Positions 5,136-31,161 of a DNA stretch of 64,000 nucleotides are shown one piece after another. Under the pieces are notes generated by a model. It was not told the origin of the DNA and did no database searches. It saw nothing but the letters and a program-made list of their open reading frames with translations. How positions within the stretch are numbered: position 1 is the first letter of the stretch; every line of letters starts with the position of its first letter. Origin of the DNA: Escherichia coli (GTDB taxonomy: Bacteria > Pseudomonadota > Gammaproteobacteria > Enterobacterales > Enterobacteriaceae); assembly GCF_003334385.1 (NCBI RefSeq), contig NZ_QOWN01000004.1, one strand, 5' to 3'. The position numbers were made by a program, and so were the translations under genes.

Positions 5136-6833
5136 TCACGGTTGGCGATCGCGCAAATGTGCGCTGAAGGTTTCAGCATCCATAAAGCCCGTGACGCGTG
5201 CTTGTGGATGCTCCTGGCCTTGTCCGTCAAAAAAGAGAATTGTCGGTAGGCCAAGGACATTAAGATGCTTTAACAGCGCCACATCTTGTGCGTCGTTGGC
5301 CGTGACGTTGGCCTGAAGTAAGACCGTGTCTGCTAACGCTTTTTGCACCTGCGGGTCGCTGAAGGTGTATTTCTCAAACTCTTTACAGGCGACGCACCAG
5401 TCGGCATAAAGATCTAACATCACCGGTTTGCCTTTGGCTTCAACGAGCGCCTGATTTAACTCATCTACCGTTTTGATTTGTGTAAAGTTGAGATGCGTCT
5501 GAGTTTGCGCGGTATGCGTCGCACCAAATGCCCAATCCTGAAGTGGGCGCACGCTAACCAATGCCGCTGCCAGCAGAATAATTTGCACAATACGCATCCA
5601 GCCGCGTTTAGCCTGTAGGCTGGTGATAAAGGCCCAGCCAAAGAATGCGACACCCAGCGCCGACCACAAGCGTAATCCCCATACATCACCAATCACTCGC
5701 TCCAGCAGGAAGACCGGCAGTGCGAGGATCACAAAACCAAACGCGGTTTTGACTTGTTCCATCCACGGGCCGCTTTTCGGCAGCAAGCGGTTACCAAAGA
5801 CGGTAATTAGCATCAGCGGCAGGCCCATGCCCAACGCATAGAGATAAAGCGTGCCGCCGCCCAGCCACATGTTCCCGCTTTGGGCGATATACAGCAGAAT
5901 CGCGCTAAGCGGTGCGGTGGTGCATGGTGAACAGATCAGTCCGGCAATCGCCCCCATAACAAACACACCGCCAGGTGAGCCGCCCTGTTGGCGATTGCTC
6001 ATCAACGTGAGACGTGTTTGCAGCGAAGAGGGGAGTTGCAGGGTAAACAAGCCAAACATTGACATCGCCAGCAAGGTAAAGACGATGGCGAGGCCAATGA
6101 GCACGTATGGGTGCTGTAGCGCCGCCTGGAACTGTAACCCTGCGGCGGCAACCACCAGACCCAGCGCCGTGTAGGTCAGCGCCATCCCCTGCACATAAAT
6201 AAAGGTCAGCAACAATGCTCTGGCAGTGGAGAGCCGCTGTTTACCACCCAGCACGATGCCAGAAATCAGTGGGTACATTGGCAGCACGCATGGCGTAAAG
6301 GCGATACCAATACCGATCAACAACGCCCAGAGCGCGGAAAAGGGCAATTGCGCGGTGGGCTGCTCTTGCTGCGGAACAGACACAGGCTGTGGCGCTGCGT
6401 TGTTGGCGACCACTTCGCTTAACGGAACGGTTTTGGTTTCTGGCGGATAACAGAAACCGGCATCAGCACAGCCCTGGTAGGTGACAGTTAACGTCGCTCC
6501 CGCACTCGCCTGGTTGATGGTGACGGGAAGCGTCAGCCGATCGCGGTAAATCTCGCTTTTGCCGTAAAACTCATCTTCATGCCAGACGCCTTGCGGCAGC
6601 TGCACGTCGGCAATTTTCGCGTGTTCCGGCGTAATGCGGATCTGTTTACGGTAGAGGTAGTAACCGTCTTTGATCTGCCAGGTCAGATTAAGGTCATGTT
6701 GGTTTTGCTGAAAATCAAAAGCAAAGGCTTGATCCGCGGGGACAAATTGTGAACGTCCCGGCGCGTCGAATAATCCGGCAAAAACGGAAGTGCTGCAAAG
6801 TAGCAGGATCAGCGTAAAGATGCGTTGAGCCAT
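5136..6833 (-). CDS. dsbD: thiol:disulfide interchange protein DsbD (start taken at internal ATG giving 565 aa)
   Basis: ORF-track 592 aa; signal peptide [19 protein letters not shown], central TM domain, C-terminal thioredoxin-like WCVACK motif. Confidence 0.9.
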
Positions 6834-25629: not shown

Positions 25630-27132
25630 ATGCCTCACACGATAAAAAAGATGAGTCTGATAGGACTCATATTGATGATCTTTACTTCCGTATTTGGATT
25701 TGCCAATAGCCCATCGGCTTATTACTTAATGGGTTATAGTGCGATTCCCTTTTATATATTTTCTGCATTGTTATTCTTTATTCCATTCGCCTTAATGATG
25801 GCTGAAATGGGAGCTGCTTATCGCAAAGAAGAAGGCGGTATCTATTCCTGGATGAATAATAGTGTCGGACCACGTTTTGCCTTCATTGGTACGTTTATGT
25901 GGTTTTCCTCTTATATCATCTGGATGGTGAGTACCTCCGCGAAAGTTTGGGTACCGTTCTCAACATTCCTCTATGGTAGCGACATGACCCAGCACTGGCG
26001 TATTGCCGGACTGGAGCCTACGCAGGTGGTTGGTCTGCTGGCTGTGGCATGGATGATTCTGGTCACCGTCGTTGCTTCTAAGGGGATTAATAAAATTGCC
26101 CGCATTACTGCGGTGGGCGGTATTGCAGTAATGTGTCTGAATTTAGTATTGCTGTTAGTAAGCATTACTATTTTGTTATTAAATGGTGGGCATTTCGCGC
26201 AGGATATTAATTTCCTTGCATCACCGAACCCGGGTTATCAGTCCGGTCTGGCAATGCTATCGTTTGTGGTATTTGCCATTTTTGCCTATGGCGGAATTGA
26301 AGCGGTTGGTGGTCTGGTCGATAAAACGGAAAATCCAGAAAAGAACTTTGCCAAAGGTATTGTTTTTGCCGCTATTGTTATTTCAATCGGTTATTCGCTG
26401 GCAATATTTTTATGGGGCGTCAGCACAAACTGGCAGCAGGTATTAAGTAATGGTTCCGTTAACCTCGGCAATATTACCTATGTGCTGATGAAGAGCCTTG
26501 GGATGACGCTGGGTAATGCACTGCATTTGTCACCTGAAGCGTCATTGTCGCTGGGCGTATGGTTTGCGCGTATTACTGGACTTTCGATGTTCCTCGCCTA
26601 TACCGGTGCGTTCTTTACGCTTTGCTATTCACCGTTGAAAGCCATCATCCAGGGGACGCCGAAAGCATTGTGGCCGGAACCGATGACGCGCCTGAATGCG
26701 ATGGGGATGCCGTCTATCGCCATGTGGATGCAGTGCGGGTTGGTTACTGTCTTCATCCTGCTGGTTTCGTTTGGTGGCGGTACCGCATCGGCGTTCTTTA
26801 ACAAGCTGACGCTGATGGCGAACGTGTCTATGACGCTTCCTTACCTGTTCCTCGCGCTGGCTTTCCCGTTCTTTAAAGCACGTCAGGATCTCGACAGACC
26901 GTTTGTGATTTTCAAAACGCATTTGTCGGCAATGATTGCGACAGTGGTTGTCGTACTGGTGGTGACATTTGCGAACGTCTTCACCATCATTCAACCTGTG
27001 GTTGAAGCCGGAGACTGGGACAGCACATTGTGGATGATTGGCGGCCCTGTCTTCTTCTCGCTGTTAGCGATGGCGATTTACCAGAACTATTGCAGCAGAG
27101 TGGCAAAAAATCCGCAGTGGGCGGTGGAATAA
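25630..27132 (+). CDS. yjeM: APC-superfamily transporter YjeM, substrate unknown
   Basis: ORF-track ORF 25588..27132; start taken at MPHTIKKMSLIGLILMIF (500 aa); about 12 TM segments. Confidence 0.88.
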   Translation: MPHTIKKMSLIGLILMIFTSVFGFANSPSAYYLMGYSAIPFYIFSALLFFIPFALMMAEMGAAYRKEEGGIYSWMNNSVGPRFAFIGTFMWFSSYIIWMVSTSAKVWVPFSTFLYGSDMTQHWRIAGLEPTQVVGLLAVAWMILVTVVASKGINKIARITAVGGIAVMCLNLVLLLVSITILLLNGGHFAQDINFLASPNPGYQSGLAMLSFVVFAIFAYGGIEAVGGLVDKTENPEKNFAKGIVFAAIVISIGYSLAIFLWGVSTNWQQVLSNGSVNLGNITYVLMKSLGMTLGNALHLSPEASLSLGVWFARITGLSMFLAYTGAFFTLCYSPLKAIIQGTPKALWPEPMTRLNAMGMPSIAMWMQCGLVTVFILLVSFGGGTASAFFNKLTLMANVSMTLPYLFLALAFPFFKARQDLDRPFVIFKTHLSAMIATVVVVLVVTFANVFTIIQPVVEAGDWDSTLWMIGGPVFFSLLAMAIYQNYCSRVAKNPQWAVE

Positions 27133-27183
27133 CCCGATGCCCTATCGTCTACCTGACGATAGGGCGTAAAGACAGGAAATGTT

Positions 27184-27498
27184 ATGGATGACACCAGCCG
27201 GGACCCGGCAATAACCGAAGATGAAATCAGGGCGCTGCAATTTTCTGCCGGGGATGTAGCGGAAATAGAGCAGACGATTCTCTCTTTTGTCGATGCCTGC
27301 CACACCCGTAAAGTGGCGATGGTGGTGGGTAGCACCATTAACACCCTCAAAGATCGCGATGGTAAACGGTGGGGAAACCTGCCGGATATTTATTGCGCTT
27401 ATCTTATCCGATGTCTGGTTTTTCGCGGGGAATTAGTGGGATACGGCGATTTGTTTCGTATGCGCTATAGCGAAATTAAGCGACCGGTTACCTTATGA
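27184..27498 (+). CDS. yjeN: uncharacterised protein YjeN
   Basis: ORF-track 104 aa; recognised as YjeN; no motif assignable. Confidence 0.8.
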   Translation: MDDTSRDPAITEDEIRALQFSAGDVAEIEQTILSFVDACHTRKVAMVVGSTINTLKDRDGKRWGNLPDIYCAYLIRCLVFRGELVGYGDLFRMRYSEIKRPVTL

Positions 27499-27809
27499 GT
27501 GCGCGCATGTTTGTCTTATGCTGCATCTGGTTTATTGTGGCGTTCCTCTGGATAACCATCACTTCCGCGCTGGACAAAGAGTGGATGATTGATGGACGCG
27601 GGATTAACAACGTCTGCGATGTGTTGATGTATCTCGAAGAAGACGATACCCGTGATGTTGGTGTGATAATGACGTTACCGCTCTTTTTCCCTTTTCTCTG
27701 GTTCGCTTTGTGGCGAAAAAAACGCGGCTGGTTTATGTACGCCACCGCGCTGGCTATTTTCGGCTACTGGCTGTGGCAGTTTTTTCTGCGCTATCAGTTT
27801 TGTTTGTGA
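27495..27809 (+). CDS. yjeO: uncharacterised small membrane protein YjeO
   Basis: ORF-track 104 aa with hydrophobic segments; start overlaps yjeN stop (ATGA). Confidence 0.8.
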   Translation: MSARMFVLCCIWFIVAFLWITITSALDKEWMIDGRGINNVCDVLMYLEEDDTRDVGVIMTLPLFFPFLWFALWRKKRGWFMYATALAIFGYWLWQFFLRYQFCL

Positions 27810-27837
27810 GCCGGATTGGTTCATCCGGCACACAAAC

Positions 27838-30800
27838 TTACAAACTTCCCGCCTGACGACCTTTGCCCGCAGACGTCAGCGTTCTCCCCGTTTGTTTACC
27901 GTTGAGGCTTTCCAGACGCATCTGGAAGGGCGGGAATGGCATATCGATACCGTGGGCATGGAAGCCAGCCAGAATCAGCTGGTGGATCTCATGGCGTAGC
28001 GGCATACGGTGACCCATCTCAGCGGCGTAAATACGCAGCTCGAAAATCTGAATCCCCTGTTGCAGATCCACCAGGAAGACTTCCGGTGCCGGGTTGTCGA
28101 TCACCAGCGAGCAGCGACGCGCTGCGGTGAGCAGGATTTCCGTCACTTCTTCGCTATTGGCATCGGCAGGGGCCGGTATCGTCAACACCACGCGCGTGAC
28201 TGAGTCAGAGAGCGACCAGTTGATAAACTGCTCGGTAATAAACGCCTTGTTCGGCACGATTATCTCTTTACGGTCCCAGTCGCTGATGGTGGTGGCGCGG
28301 GTGTTAATTTTCGTCACGCTACCGGTGAGATCGCGAATTGTCACCGTATCGCCAATGCGAATCGGTTTTTCGAACAGGATAATCAGACCAGAGATAAAGT
28401 TGGCGAAAATTTCCTGCAAACCAAAACCGAGACCAACACCGAGCGCGGCAACCAGCCACTGCAATTTCGACCACTCAATACCAACCATTGAGAAGCCGAC
28501 CAGCCCGCCAATCAGCATCAGCAGATATTTGGTGATGGTGGTGATGGCGTAACCCGTACCCGGCGTTAAATCCAGGTGCTGCAAAATCGCCAGTTCCAGC
28601 AGCGCGGGCAAGTTGCGCACCAGCTGCGTGGTGATGATAAACACCAGAATGGCAATCAGCACCGCACCGAGGGTAATTGGCTCCAGACTTTCTACGCCCT
28701 GTACCGTGGAGGTGACATCCCACAGCGAAATATTTTCGAGGAAGCCGAAAGCGGAATGGATTTCTGACCACAGCACAATGACAGAAAGCAGGGCGATCAA
28801 CATCAAAATTGAGCGCACCAGCCGCAAGGATTGCGCACTGATGGCATCGAGATCGACTTCGCTTTCATCGACTTCAATTGCTCCTTCCGGGCTACTGTGA
28901 TGATGCGCTTCCTCTTCGCCACGCGCACGTTGCGCTAACATCTCTGCCCGGCGATGCTTCGCCCGATCAAACGCCAGCCTGCGGCGCTGGATCAGCATCC
29001 AGCGGCGGATAACGTGATAAACCACCAGTAGCAGGAACCAGATGGCAACCGAGGTTTCAAGCCTCGCTAACAGCGCCTGTGCCGTTGCCAGATAACCCAC
29101 CGCCGACGCCAGAATGGCAACCAACGGCGCGCCAATCATCATGTTCCACAGCATATGGTTGGTAATGTTGTCGCCGCTGCCCTCTTTGTTGAGATACAGC
29201 GGAATCCCGGCCTTTTTCAGGCTGAGGGTGACCACCGCCAGCGCACCGCAAATGAGGATAAAGCAAAGCCGTCCCAGCGAACCGGAGAATTCACGGTCGT
29301 CGAGGTTATCGAACATCATCAGCGCCATAATCAGCGGCACAATAAGCCCGATGCTCATCAGGTAGTAGCGCATCCCACGGGAAACACGTTCGCGCGGCCA
29401 GCCAAAATGAGCGATAAACAAGCCGTTCGGGCGGGCAAAGGTGGCGCAAATCATCACTACCCACAGCAGCGGCACGGTGGCCGTTACACCATCGCCAATC
29501 GCGACCGCCAGCGGATAAGGCCACGCCTCGCGCAAGCCGTAACCCAGCGTCATCCACAGCACCGGTAACGGTGACGCGACGAGAATCGACCAGAAAAGAG
29601 TGCGCAACGTCAGCCAGAAGTGATCCTGAGTCACTTTGCCAACTTTCGCCGCCGAACGTTCAAGAAAACGGGTGAAATAGCGGCGCGAGTAAATACTGCA
29701 ACCGACCAGAATCAACGCGCCAAACAGCGGCAAAATTGTCTCTTTGCTGGTCAGCATCATCACACTGGCTTTGCCCAACTGACTGAAGGTGTCCAGCGAA
29801 ATGAGACGACGCAGATCCTGGGCGATTTCCAGCGGCCAGGCGATGGTCATCGGGCGCACGTCAGAGGTCCAGAACAGATAGCGGTGCGTTGCTTCGTTCA
29901 CCTCTTTCAGCGCATCCTCCAGTTGCCCGTTGGAGACTTTCAGCTTGGTCAGTTCCAATAGTAGCGTGTCGCCACCCTGCAACAATGAGTTCAGCAACTC
30001 ACGCTGAGTGCGCAGTTGTGCTTCCAGAATACGGTTTTGCTCGGCAGTCAGCGGCTGACCGTCGGCCTGATGAATTTGCCGTAGCAGCGGCTGTTTATTA
30101 AGCAGATCCTCATAACGTAACCGTTGCACACGCAACTGCGCCATTTCGGTATCAAGCTGTTGTGGTTTCGGCATTTCCGGCAGCCGTGCCACCTGCGCCC
30201 GCAGCGCTTCGCCGAGCAGATTGGACGATCCCAGCCATTGCGACTGTTCACGCAGCGTATTCAACGCCTGCCGGACCTGTAACGTCTGGCTGGCAGCCTG
30301 ACGCTGTTGCGAGGCAACGAGATCCATCCGCTGCGCCTGTTGATTCAAAGCCGCCGATAGTTCGCGGTTAATTTTGAATTGCGCGACGATATCTTTCGGC
30401 AAATCGGCGCTGTTTTCTGCCAGCAATTCGGTACTTTCCAGCGCCCGCTCCGCCTCAAGCTGACGTTGGCTGTTTAATTGATTACGCAAGGCCTGCAAAT
30501 ACGCATCCAGTTGCTGGCTCTCTTTTTCCGCCAGCTCTGAGCGTAAGCGCGCTAATTCCTGGCGGTTATTGGCAGACAGCTGCGCCAGCTCCAGTTCATC
30601 AACGAGCGCCTTAAGACGTGCAGAGTCAGACTGCAACGCGAAATTTTGTGCCTGATTGAGCGGAGTATTGCCGGTAAGCGTTCCCAGGCGGCGCTCGATC
30701 TCATTTAACTGACGGCGGGCGTCGGTTTGCTGTTGCGGCAGTTGATTCAGCGAATCGGCAATCTCGCGGGCGCGCTCCTGCTCTTGCTGGGCCTGACGGC

Positions 30801-31161
30801 TTTTATCCAGCAACTGGCTGCTGACCTGGAGAATTTCCTGATTCAGCGCGTCGGTAGACATTCCCGGCGACACGCTGCGCGGCTCGTCACGCATGTTGTT
30901 TAATTGTGCGCGCAGAGTAGCGGAGAGTTTCGGATAATTATCGATAACTTGCTGATATTGTTTGATGCGCTCAAGGGAACCTTTTCGTTCCTCAAGCGCA
31001 TTTAAGGCAGACTGGAGCGCCTCTACGACTTCCGGCTGTGCGGGTTTCGCCGCTTTTGCCTGCTCCAGTTCCTGAGTGATTTGTTTGCTATCGGGGGCCG
31101 TCGCGGCGTACGCCCCCCAACTGAGGCACCAGGCCATCAGAAAAGTGATAATCAGGCGCAC
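27838..31161 (-). CDS. mscM: mechanosensitive channel MscM (MscS family, large periplasmic coiled-coil N-domain)
   Basis: ORF-track 1107 aa; signal peptide, long Q/E/L-rich coiled coil, C-terminal MscS-like TM and beta domains. Confidence 0.95.
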   Translation of the reverse strand: MRLIITFLMAWCLSWGAYAATAPDSKQITQELEQAKAAKPAQPEVVEALQSALNALEERKGSLERIKQYQQVIDNYPKLSATLRAQLNNMRDEPRSVSPGMSTDALNQEILQVSSQLLDKSRQAQQEQERAREIADSLNQLPQQQTDARRQLNEIERRLGTLTGNTPLNQAQNFALQSDSARLKALVDELELAQLSANNRQELARLRSELAEKESQQLDAYLQALRNQLNSQRQLEAERALESTELLAENSADLPKDIVAQFKINRELSAALNQQAQRMDLVASQQRQAASQTLQVRQALNTLREQSQWLGSSNLLGEALRAQVARLPEMPKPQQLDTEMAQLRVQRLRYEDLLNKQPLLRQIHQADGQPLTAEQNRILEAQLRTQRELLNSLLQGGDTLLLELTKLKVSNGQLEDALKEVNEATHRYLFWTSDVRPMTIAWPLEIAQDLRRLISLDTFSQLGKASVMMLTSKETILPLFGALILVGCSIYSRRYFTRFLERSAAKVGKVTQDHFWLTLRTLFWSILVASPLPVLWMTLGYGLREAWPYPLAVAIGDGVTATVPLLWVVMICATFARPNGLFIAHFGWPRERVSRGMRYYLMSIGLIVPLIMALMMFDNLDDREFSGSLGRLCFILICGALAVVTLSLKKAGIPLYLNKEGSGDNITNHMLWNMMIGAPLVAILASAVGYLATAQALLARLETSVAIWFLLLVVYHVIRRWMLIQRRRLAFDRAKHRRAEMLAQRARGEEEAHHHSSPEGAIEVDESEVDLDAISAQSLRLVRSILMLIALLSVIVLWSEIHSAFGFLENISLWDVTSTVQGVESLEPITLGAVLIAILVFIITTQLVRNLPALLELAILQHLDLTPGTGYAITTITKYLLMLIGGLVGFSMVGIEWSKLQWLVAALGVGLGFGLQEIFANFISGLIILFEKPIRIGDTVTIRDLTGSVTKINTRATTISDWDRKEIIVPNKAFITEQFINWSLSDSVTRVVLTIPAPADANSEEVTEILLTAARRCSLVIDNPAPEVFLVDLQQGIQIFELRIYAAEMGHRMPLRHEIHQLILAGFHAHGIDMPFPPFQMRLESLNGKQTGRTLTSAGKGRQAGSL

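Follow-up and report, generated by a model that had tools for sequence, protein, structure and literature searches.

Candidate orphan type VI secretion immunity gene yjeO and its neighbor yjeN lie beside an independent transporter gene, yjeM, in Escherichia coli

Organization of the yjeM-yjeN-yjeO locus

A 64,000-nucleotide stretch of an Escherichia coli genome (assembly GCF_003334385.1, contig NZ_QOWN01000004.1; the whole stretch is hereafter the window) carries yjeM, which encodes a putative transporter, followed closely by two small overlapping genes, yjeN and yjeO (Table 1). The subject of this report is the identity of the two small genes and their relationship to yjeM. A preliminary description of this DNA, made from the sequence alone, had grouped the three genes, by implication as one unit, and named no function for them. 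Upon re-reading the sequence, its coordinates, the 51-bp gap, the two 104-codon open reading frames (ORFs), and the ATGA at 27495..27498 were all found to be exact. K-12-type E. coli chromosomes are identical to the studied region at 100%, and RefSeq lists the order epmA, yjeM, yjeN, yjeO, and convergent mscM on these chromosomes. All three genes are therefore already annotated, under the same names as those given in the preliminary description, and the statement that none has an established function still stands.

Table 1. Features of the yjeM-mscM region, in window coordinates.
Feature	Position	Strand	Description
yjeM	25630..27132	+	500 codons from ATG at 25630; APC-superfamily transporter, GGA family
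yjeM-yjeN spacer	27133-27183		51 bp
Hairpin in yjeM-yjeN spacer	27137..27167	+	13-bp stem, no U-run after it
yjeN	27184..27498	+	104 codons; AGGA 6 nt upstream; soluble, divergent DUF3658-type winged-helix (predicted)
yjeN/yjeO stop-start overlap	27495..27498	+	ATGA, read from sequence
yjeO	27495..27809	+	104 codons; DUF2645 inner-membrane protein, three predicted transmembrane segments
Hairpin between convergent yjeO and mscM	27802..27837	not assigned	Overlaps yjeO stop codon
mscM/yjeP	27838-31161	-	ORF end at 27838, convergent with yjeO

The ORF list extends yjeM back to a GTG at 25588, and the annotated ATG has AAGGA 7 nt upstream. No obvious Shine-Dalgarno sequence is found upstream of the yjeO start, and the ATGA overlap suggests that the translation of yjeN and yjeO is probably coupled. 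The hairpin located between yjeM and yjeN is strong by RNA folding (-26.4 kcal/mol, z = -5.5; none of 200 shuffles was as stable) and its stem is preserved through compensatory changes in the IHE3034/STEC1575 allele. A simple terminator scan did not call this hairpin because it lacks a T-run; its probable role is to set yjeM apart from yjeNO, as an element for transcript end, stability, or attenuation. The hairpin downstream of yjeO (-21.3 kcal/mol, z = -5.6) is probably a bidirectional terminator shared with mscM. Simple sigma-70 and terminator scans of the locus were uninformative. Orthologues of yjeN and yjeO are present throughout Escherichia and also in Salmonella, and the pairwise dN/dS ratios versus K-12 (Nei-Gojobori) are 0.10-0.20 (yjeN) and 0.04-0.28 (yjeO); the range for yjeM is 0.02-0.17. 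As judged from their sequences, yjeN and yjeO are real coding genes and not chance ORFs.

DUF2645 genes and their upstream partner, P236

YjeO matches PF10840 (DUF2645) with E = 4.3e-41, its residues 6-103 aligning to model positions 1-98 of 98, and the E. coli protein retains all of the family-invariant residues. The hydrophobic character already ascribed to it resolves into three hydrophobic segments. The RKKRG loop has a net charge of +4 and the acidic loop at residues 27-56 a net charge of -6; by the positive-inside rule, the former is predicted to be cytoplasmic, while the latter and the C-terminal tail are predicted to be periplasmic. C41 and C103 are the only invariant cysteines and both fall on the predicted periplasmic side. 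The other invariant loop residues are D27, E29, N39, D50, D51, and R53, while the invariant P66, W94, F96, R99, and Y100 are located in or beside the second and third hydrophobic segments. The protein terminates (...RYQFCL) 5 residues past the third transmembrane segment. The term DUF2645 does not occur in the searchable literature, nor are the relevant RefSeq protein accessions mentioned there.

For other species, one genome per species was scanned, yielding 25 yjeO-type loci that were then examined by tblastn. In Citrobacter, Kosakonia, Enterobacter, Atlantibacter, Trabulsiella, and Winslowiella, the gene directly upstream of yjeO encodes an unannotated protein of ~236 aa (234-238 aa), for which we use the name P236, and in Citrobacter the two genes share the same ATGA overlap that joins yjeN and yjeO. 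Of the 21 non-Escherichia loci, 18 have P236, whole or as a remnant, immediately upstream of yjeO: the gene is intact in 11, disrupted by nonsense, frameshift, or deletion mutations in 7, and absent from the remaining 3. The yjeO gene is intact in 19 of these 21 loci, including 8 of the 10 that have no functional P236. The pairing occurs both with yjeM (Citrobacter and Pseudocitrobacter) and without it (Kosakonia, Atlantibacter, and Trabulsiella), and in Winslowiella/Erwinia the P236-DUF2645 pair is located elsewhere on the chromosome. Where P236 homologues are encoded on plasmids or at further sites, DUF2645 genes again come after them. In total, co-oriented and adjoining or overlapping P236-DUF2645 genes were found at the 11 intact and 7 decayed loci between epmA and mscM, as well as at four others. 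Among seven aligned DUF2645-type or candidate proteins, PF10840 matched six, namely YjeO and five of the six partners encoded downstream of P236 homologues.

Several of the pairs located elsewhere also adjoin hcp, a type VI secretion system (T6SS) gene. This was the case in Rahnella, Serratia fonticola, Serratia sp., and E. coli PN43, with the hcp genes next to the Serratia pairs being carried on two Serratia plasmids. The Hcp proteins encoded beside P236 homologues score 194-209 bits against TIGR03344, which has a cut-off of 58.9.

P236 has no signal peptide. Sixteen homologues share an invariant Glu77 within A-x-x-E-V/A-G-G, invariant S112, G114, and Q119 within T-S-x-G-x-x-x-x-Q, and two further invariant elements, R188-Y-N-x-G192 and Y218-G219. 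We take these motifs to resemble the E-S / G-L-M-Q / A-Y-N-x-G series of the SLT family. The comparison figures obtained for P236 were 7.8 for Slt, 7.2 for both MltC and phiKZ gp144, 7.1 for both Slt70 and goose-type lysozyme, and 5.2 for Tge2. Its modeled fold is likely, but not proven, to be lytic-transglycosylase-like. Weak matches were obtained to phrog_13449 ('transglycosylase', E = 0.03) and to PhiKZ034 (E = 0.6-0.8), together with a strong match to the unannotated phage family phrog_11932 at E values of 1e-26 to 1e-29; a tblastn search of 50,697 phage records returned no P236 match. On a Streptomyces sp. plasmid (L054, 2158-3851), a 460-aa protein has a P236-like domain as its C-terminus, and its gene is followed by an overlapping 103-aa ORF, a layout that, from its sequence, is that of a polymorphic toxin and immunity gene in a Gram-positive bacterium.

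The ygiZ locus

A second DUF2645 gene of E. coli, ygiZ, shows a similar arrangement. In E. coli PN43, the interval between mdaB and qseC (L045, 2489-4020) has the order mdaB-hcp-P236like-ygiZ-qseC. The hcp-P236like-ygiZ set occurs in 1261 of 5426 complete E. coli genomes (about a quarter), while ygiZ stands alone in ~3300, as it does in K-12. Genes upstream of ygiZ other than hcp are annotated as hypothetical proteins, and no paper in the searchable literature combines Hcp, mdaB, qseC, and T6SS. The ygiZ and yjeO loci are alike in their DUF2645 family membership and in being polymorphic between a full hcp-effector-immunity set and the membrane gene alone. They differ in that YjeO and YgiZ are only ~28% identical, which is not significant in a pairwise comparison, and the effector homologue at the ygiZ locus is ~34% identical to P236. 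Moreover, hcp has been kept at the ygiZ locus in some E. coli, whereas P236 was found at the yjeO locus in no Escherichia examined.

yjeM is independent of its downstream neighbors

The assignment of YjeM to the APC transporters is borne out by its match to NF011775, the NCBIfam YjeM equivalog, at 860.8 bits versus a cut-off of 400 (residues 3-495 of 500). It resembles GadC and the other antiporters of the glutamate:GABA-antiporter (GGA) family in its superfamily, its fold family, and its full-length 12-TM permease architecture. However, it scores only 91.3, 78.3, and 69.6 bits against the GadC models TIGR03813, NF053662, and TIGR00910, far under their equivalog cut-offs of 650, 640, and 673.5, and no decarboxylase gene adjoins yjeM in the window. 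The only phenotype found for yjeM is a weak suppression of a threonine-uptake defect in multicopy, without measurable uptake; an insert spanning K-12 positions 4,383,331-4,385,560, described as holding the yjeM ORF, was sufficient for this effect (PMC12003319).

One rival reading, implied by the grouping in the preliminary description, is that yjeM, yjeN, and yjeO constitute one functional unit, in which the small proteins would be accessory or regulatory subunits of the transporter. The three genes are indeed co-oriented, separated by only 51 bp between yjeM and yjeN, found in the same order in Escherichia and partly in Salmonella, and one metatranscriptome assembly has a portion of yjeM on the same transcript as yjeNO (PMC4168707). 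Nevertheless, yjeNO is not conserved with yjeM. All 5426 complete E. coli genomes have a yjeM match, whereas yjeO is present in 3021 (56%) and yjeN in 2153 (40%), so that yjeM occurs without yjeO in ~2400 genomes and without yjeN in ~3270. Conversely, yjeM adjoins yjeO in 10 of the 25 yjeO-bearing species by tblastn and is missing from 14 of the 25 loci, where yjeO occupies the same epmA-mscM site in other Enterobacteriaceae; DUF2645 genes also reside at unrelated sites in Winslowiella, Rahnella, Serratia, and at the ygiZ locus of E. coli. The strong, conserved hairpin between yjeM and yjeN, the sufficiency of the yjeM insert for the multicopy phenotype, and the listing of yjeM and yjeNO as separate operons in RegulonDB (according to PMC4168707) likewise argue against a common unit. 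The distribution data thus largely refute this idea, which we consider very improbable, and yjeM is an independent, vertically inherited GGA-family APC permease that is not functionally tied to the genes downstream. For any search for the YjeM substrate, this removes yjeN and yjeO as misleading guides.

Two further observations concern the ends of yjeM. In Enterobacter sp. ENT03, a partial second epmA 3' end is found just after yjeM (L031, 3732-4115; residues 198-325, 87.5% identity), and this repeat of epmA on both sides of yjeM suggests that yjeM was inserted into the epmA-P236 spacer by recombination. In addition, the last ~12 codons of yjeM (window 27097-27132; loci L001, L002, and L004) exist in two diverged forms, ending in SRVAKNPQWAVE and SRMANKPELALD. 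The two forms sort independently of whether yjeN and yjeO are present, suggesting that a recombination breakpoint lies where yjeM ends.

Allelic states of yjeN-yjeO

At least four allelic states were found at the yjeN-yjeO site of E. coli. In the first, both genes are present, as two sequence types that are ~95% identical; in the second, there is a deletion inside yjeN and yjeO is intact; in the third, just a diverged 5' stub of yjeN is left; and the fourth is an IS2 insertion. The latter was seen in the yjeM-yjeO interval of strain LD27-1 (NZ_CP047594.1), which is otherwise 100% identical. The yjeO gene occurs without yjeN in ~868 E. coli genomes, and the reverse occurs in no more than one complete genome, given that coverage of the entire region reaches 80% or more in 3022 genomes. 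Salmonella lineages differ in this respect, some carrying yjeM-yjeN but no yjeO and others yjeM-yjeO but no yjeN. In one Salmonella enterica locus (L005), yjeO is missing, 136 bp are left before mscM, and yjeN is bracketed by REP-like palindromic elements (6001-6060 and 6380-6510). The 125-aa gene call for this yjeN is N-terminally over-extended by the REP-like elements, and its likely true start would give a protein of ~106 aa.

YjeN is a divergent DUF3658 protein

YjeN had been described as a soluble protein without a recognizable motif. Its solubility agrees with the lack of any hydrophobic segment (the highest 19-residue Kyte-Doolittle hydropathy is 1.1). As for the motif, a direct Pfam scan indeed gives no match even at E <= 10, but a profile search does connect YjeN to DUF3658. 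With a YjeN profile, an exhaustive search retrieved 179 representatives that align along the full domain at E <= 1e-3. Most are stand-alone proteins of ~100 aa; some are longer and have the domain at their C-terminal end. The nearest profile matches have the precomputed Pfam label DUF3658, and PF12395 (DUF3658) matches 24 of 27 aligned YjeN-family members at E <= 1e-3. YjeN shares with DUF3658 proteins a ~95-residue core and the motifs RKVAMVVG, IPD-YY, and G-L-RMR-SE, and differs from them in falling under Pfam detection and in being a stand-alone domain; Pfam describes DUF3658 mainly together with DUF1835. The predicted fold is winged-helix-like. From its sequence profile and modeled fold, YjeN appears to be a cytoplasmic winged-helix protein of the DUF3658 type, its translation probably coupled to that of yjeO.

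Several candidate identities for YjeN were rejected. It is not a truncated P236, as BLASTP detected no similarity between the two (E = 0.97) and tblastn found no P236 remnant in four Escherichia loci. Nor is it a taxonomically restricted orphan: a word-indexed search retrieved only Escherichia and Salmonella, in contrast to the 179 distant relatives found with the profile. A type II toxin-antitoxin or anti-phage system composed of yjeN and yjeO was also dismissed, given that PADLOC returned no matches for any of the proteins and the co-occurrence of the two genes is not obligate. In two long contexts, DUF3658 genes are found among immunity genes, one beside Imm50 and the other within an SMI1_KNR4, Ank, and DUF1963 gene array. 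We also examined 80 metagenomic DUF3658 loci, of which 68 are stand-alone, using crude gene calling. Among the top 20 families, the most frequent neighbors were Macro, GNAT, FtsX, rve, and Gp49, with 2-3 members each. An immunity function for YjeN is therefore not supported in general, as immunity families are not enriched among these neighbors. An additional orphan immunity protein is one possible identity for YjeN; a small factor that binds nucleic acids or proteins is another. A 172-aa DUF3658 protein is also encoded by a cassette lying between dfrA1 and aadA, within a clinical-type class 1 integron on a Klebsiella pneumoniae IncN plasmid (L050, 3782-4300).

yjeO as a putative orphan immunity gene

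Taken together, these results lead us to favor, with slightly better than even confidence, a reading in which yjeN-yjeO is the Escherichia remnant of a competition island, yjeO is an orphan T6SS immunity gene, and yjeM is separate. A small island for interbacterial competition would occupy the epmA-mscM interval throughout the Enterobacteriaceae. When complete, it would encode P236 as a cytoplasmically made, lysozyme/lytic-transglycosylase-like toxin of ~236 aa and, immediately downstream and usually overlapping, a DUF2645 membrane protein. P236 would probably be loaded into the Hcp tube and fired by the T6SS into the periplasm of a neighboring cell, because P236 homologues elsewhere are encoded right beside hcp. 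The DUF2645 protein would reside in the inner membrane with a cytoplasmic N-terminus and with the acidic loop and C-terminal tail in the periplasm, where a C41-C103 disulfide may pin the loop and tail together, and the two would jointly bind the arriving enzyme and inhibit it. The Escherichia/Salmonella lineage no longer has the toxin gene; there, yjeO would persist as an orphan immunity gene, and yjeN sits in the slot of the toxin, its translation probably coupled to that of yjeO. An orphan yjeO could then protect even strains that have no T6SS, such as K-12, from toxin-bearing neighbors. The logic of effector-immunity pairs and orphan immunity fits here because the gene lies downstream of the enzyme gene, is hcp-linked, and is retained after loss of the enzyme. 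Gene order, conservation, presence/absence patterns, Hcp linkage, and family assignments are direct observations. The immunity role of YjeO, by contrast, we infer from these and from a weak structural model, as we do the activity of the toxin, its T6SS delivery, the YjeO topology, and neutralization; we place the immunity role at roughly even odds or better. The broader proposal, that DUF2645 (YjeO and YgiZ) is an unrecognized family of polytopic inner-membrane immunity proteins directed against P236 proteins as unrecognized Hcp-delivered lytic-transglycosylase-like effectors, we regard as evenly balanced.

A number of points weigh against this interpretation. No experiment ties any DUF2645 protein to immunity, and neither hcp nor any other T6SS gene adjoins P236-yjeO at the epmA-mscM locus or is present in the window. 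The structure model of P236 is of low confidence (pLDDT 56.7), and with single sequences and profiles P236 has no HMMER-level similarity to solved lytic transglycosylases or to those in Pfam, NCBIfam, or PDB. The immunity proteins known for peptidoglycan glycosidases, such as Tsi3 and Tgi2, are soluble periplasmic proteins or lipoproteins and not three-pass membrane proteins with a 30-residue loop. The absence of yjeO from 44% of E. coli genomes implies that any benefit is conditional. As for YjeN, the 132 neighbors of 60 of the 80 metagenomic DUF3658 loci, compared with Pfam, exhibited no enrichment of immunity families.

Among the other explanations, it could be that yjeN and yjeO are simply functionless relics that are being lost from E. 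coli. Their absence from many genomes (60% in the case of yjeN), the several independent deletion alleles and the IS2 insertion, and the many truncated protein variants in databases would all be expected of such relics. The Escherichia-Salmonella split dates to ~100 Myr, however, and even across it dN/dS is well under 1 (0.10 for yjeN and 0.16 for yjeO). YjeO has also kept every family-invariant residue, both cysteines included, and the gene was induced 2.6-fold upon overproduction of sigma-E (PMC2731931). Decay without function thus seems unlikely to us. The same induction, which places yjeNO among the loci responding to sigma-E overproduction, could instead mark YjeO as a housekeeping membrane protein of the envelope stress response that has no connection to the T6SS, with its adjacency to P236 reflecting some other partnership, such as the regulation of an endogenous cell-wall enzyme. 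Activation of the yjeO paralogue ygiZ by the envelope-linked regulator BglJ-RcsB (PMC3950696) and the location of yjeO next to mscM are both compatible with this idea. It nonetheless leaves the Hcp linkage unexplained, and the patchy presence of yjeO within a single species is a poor fit for a housekeeping gene. There is also no sigma-E-type promoter close to yjeN; the window contains 8 loose matches, fewer than expected by chance, and the one closest to yjeN is at 24904. We find an envelope stress role distinctly unlikely.

P236 and DUF2645 might also be a muramidase and a holin-like protein, forming a cryptic lysis cassette or a type-10-like secretion system of which YjeO would be the holin-like remnant. 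P236 does resemble a peptidoglycan glycosidase without a signal peptide and matches the phage family phrog_11932, while YjeO, with ~100 aa and three transmembrane segments, has the size of a class I holin. Holins typically have a charged cytoplasmic C-terminal tail, which is lacking in YjeO given where its sequence ends, and there is no obvious benefit in keeping a holin without its enzyme, whereas orphan immunity genes are well known. Furthermore, hcp adjoins the pair at four independent loci, the phage records yielded no tblastn match to P236, the flanking genes are housekeeping genes, and the Streptomyces homologue has the layout of polymorphic toxins. A holin pair is, in our judgment, a doubtful explanation of low probability.

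If yjeO is indeed an orphan immunity gene, two function-less K-12 genes, yjeO and ygiZ, would gain a concrete and testable role (yjeN being likewise function-less), and P236 would represent a new T6SS effector family with a broad distribution across Citrobacter, Enterobacter, Kosakonia, Serratia, Rahnella, and about one in four E. coli. K-12, which has no T6SS, would possess two orphan immunity genes that help to determine by which Enterobacteriaceae it can be killed, and the patchy presence of yjeO and ygiZ would serve as a marker of which strains resist which gut neighbors. Among immunity proteins against peptidoglycan glycosidases, YjeO would also be the first to span the membrane three times and to present a short periplasmic loop pinned by a disulfide. 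As a side note, an I724T substitution in the neighboring gene mscM conferred broad resistance of E. coli to Vibrio cholerae T6SS attack in experimental evolution (PMC10679819); the location of mscM beside a putative T6SS immunity gene may be a coincidence. The 'yjeM' named in that same study is a typographical error for yejM.

Comparison with known systems

The closest known parallels to the proposed P236-DUF2645 pair are T6SS effector-immunity pairs whose effectors are peptidoglycan glycoside hydrolases, namely Tge1/Tse3-Tsi3 of P. aeruginosa and Tge2-Tgi2 of P. protegens. P236 differs from these effectors in having no detected sequence-level similarity to the Tge families, and the predicted three-pass inner-membrane topology of YjeO contrasts with the soluble periplasmic or lipoprotein nature of Tsi3 and Tgi2. 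Unlike those pairs, the window holds the putative immunity gene alone, without an effector, hcp, or a T6SS; the effector-then-immunity order is not present there, and yjeN fills the effector slot. Orphan immunity arrays are known in Vibrio cholerae, as are acquired interbacterial defence clusters in Bacteroidales. Like these genes, yjeO is kept without a toxin, is variable within the species, and would help a strain that is itself unable to attack. Whereas the orphan and acquired arrays are mobile, yjeO is a single gene at a fixed chromosomal site that has been inherited largely vertically across genera.

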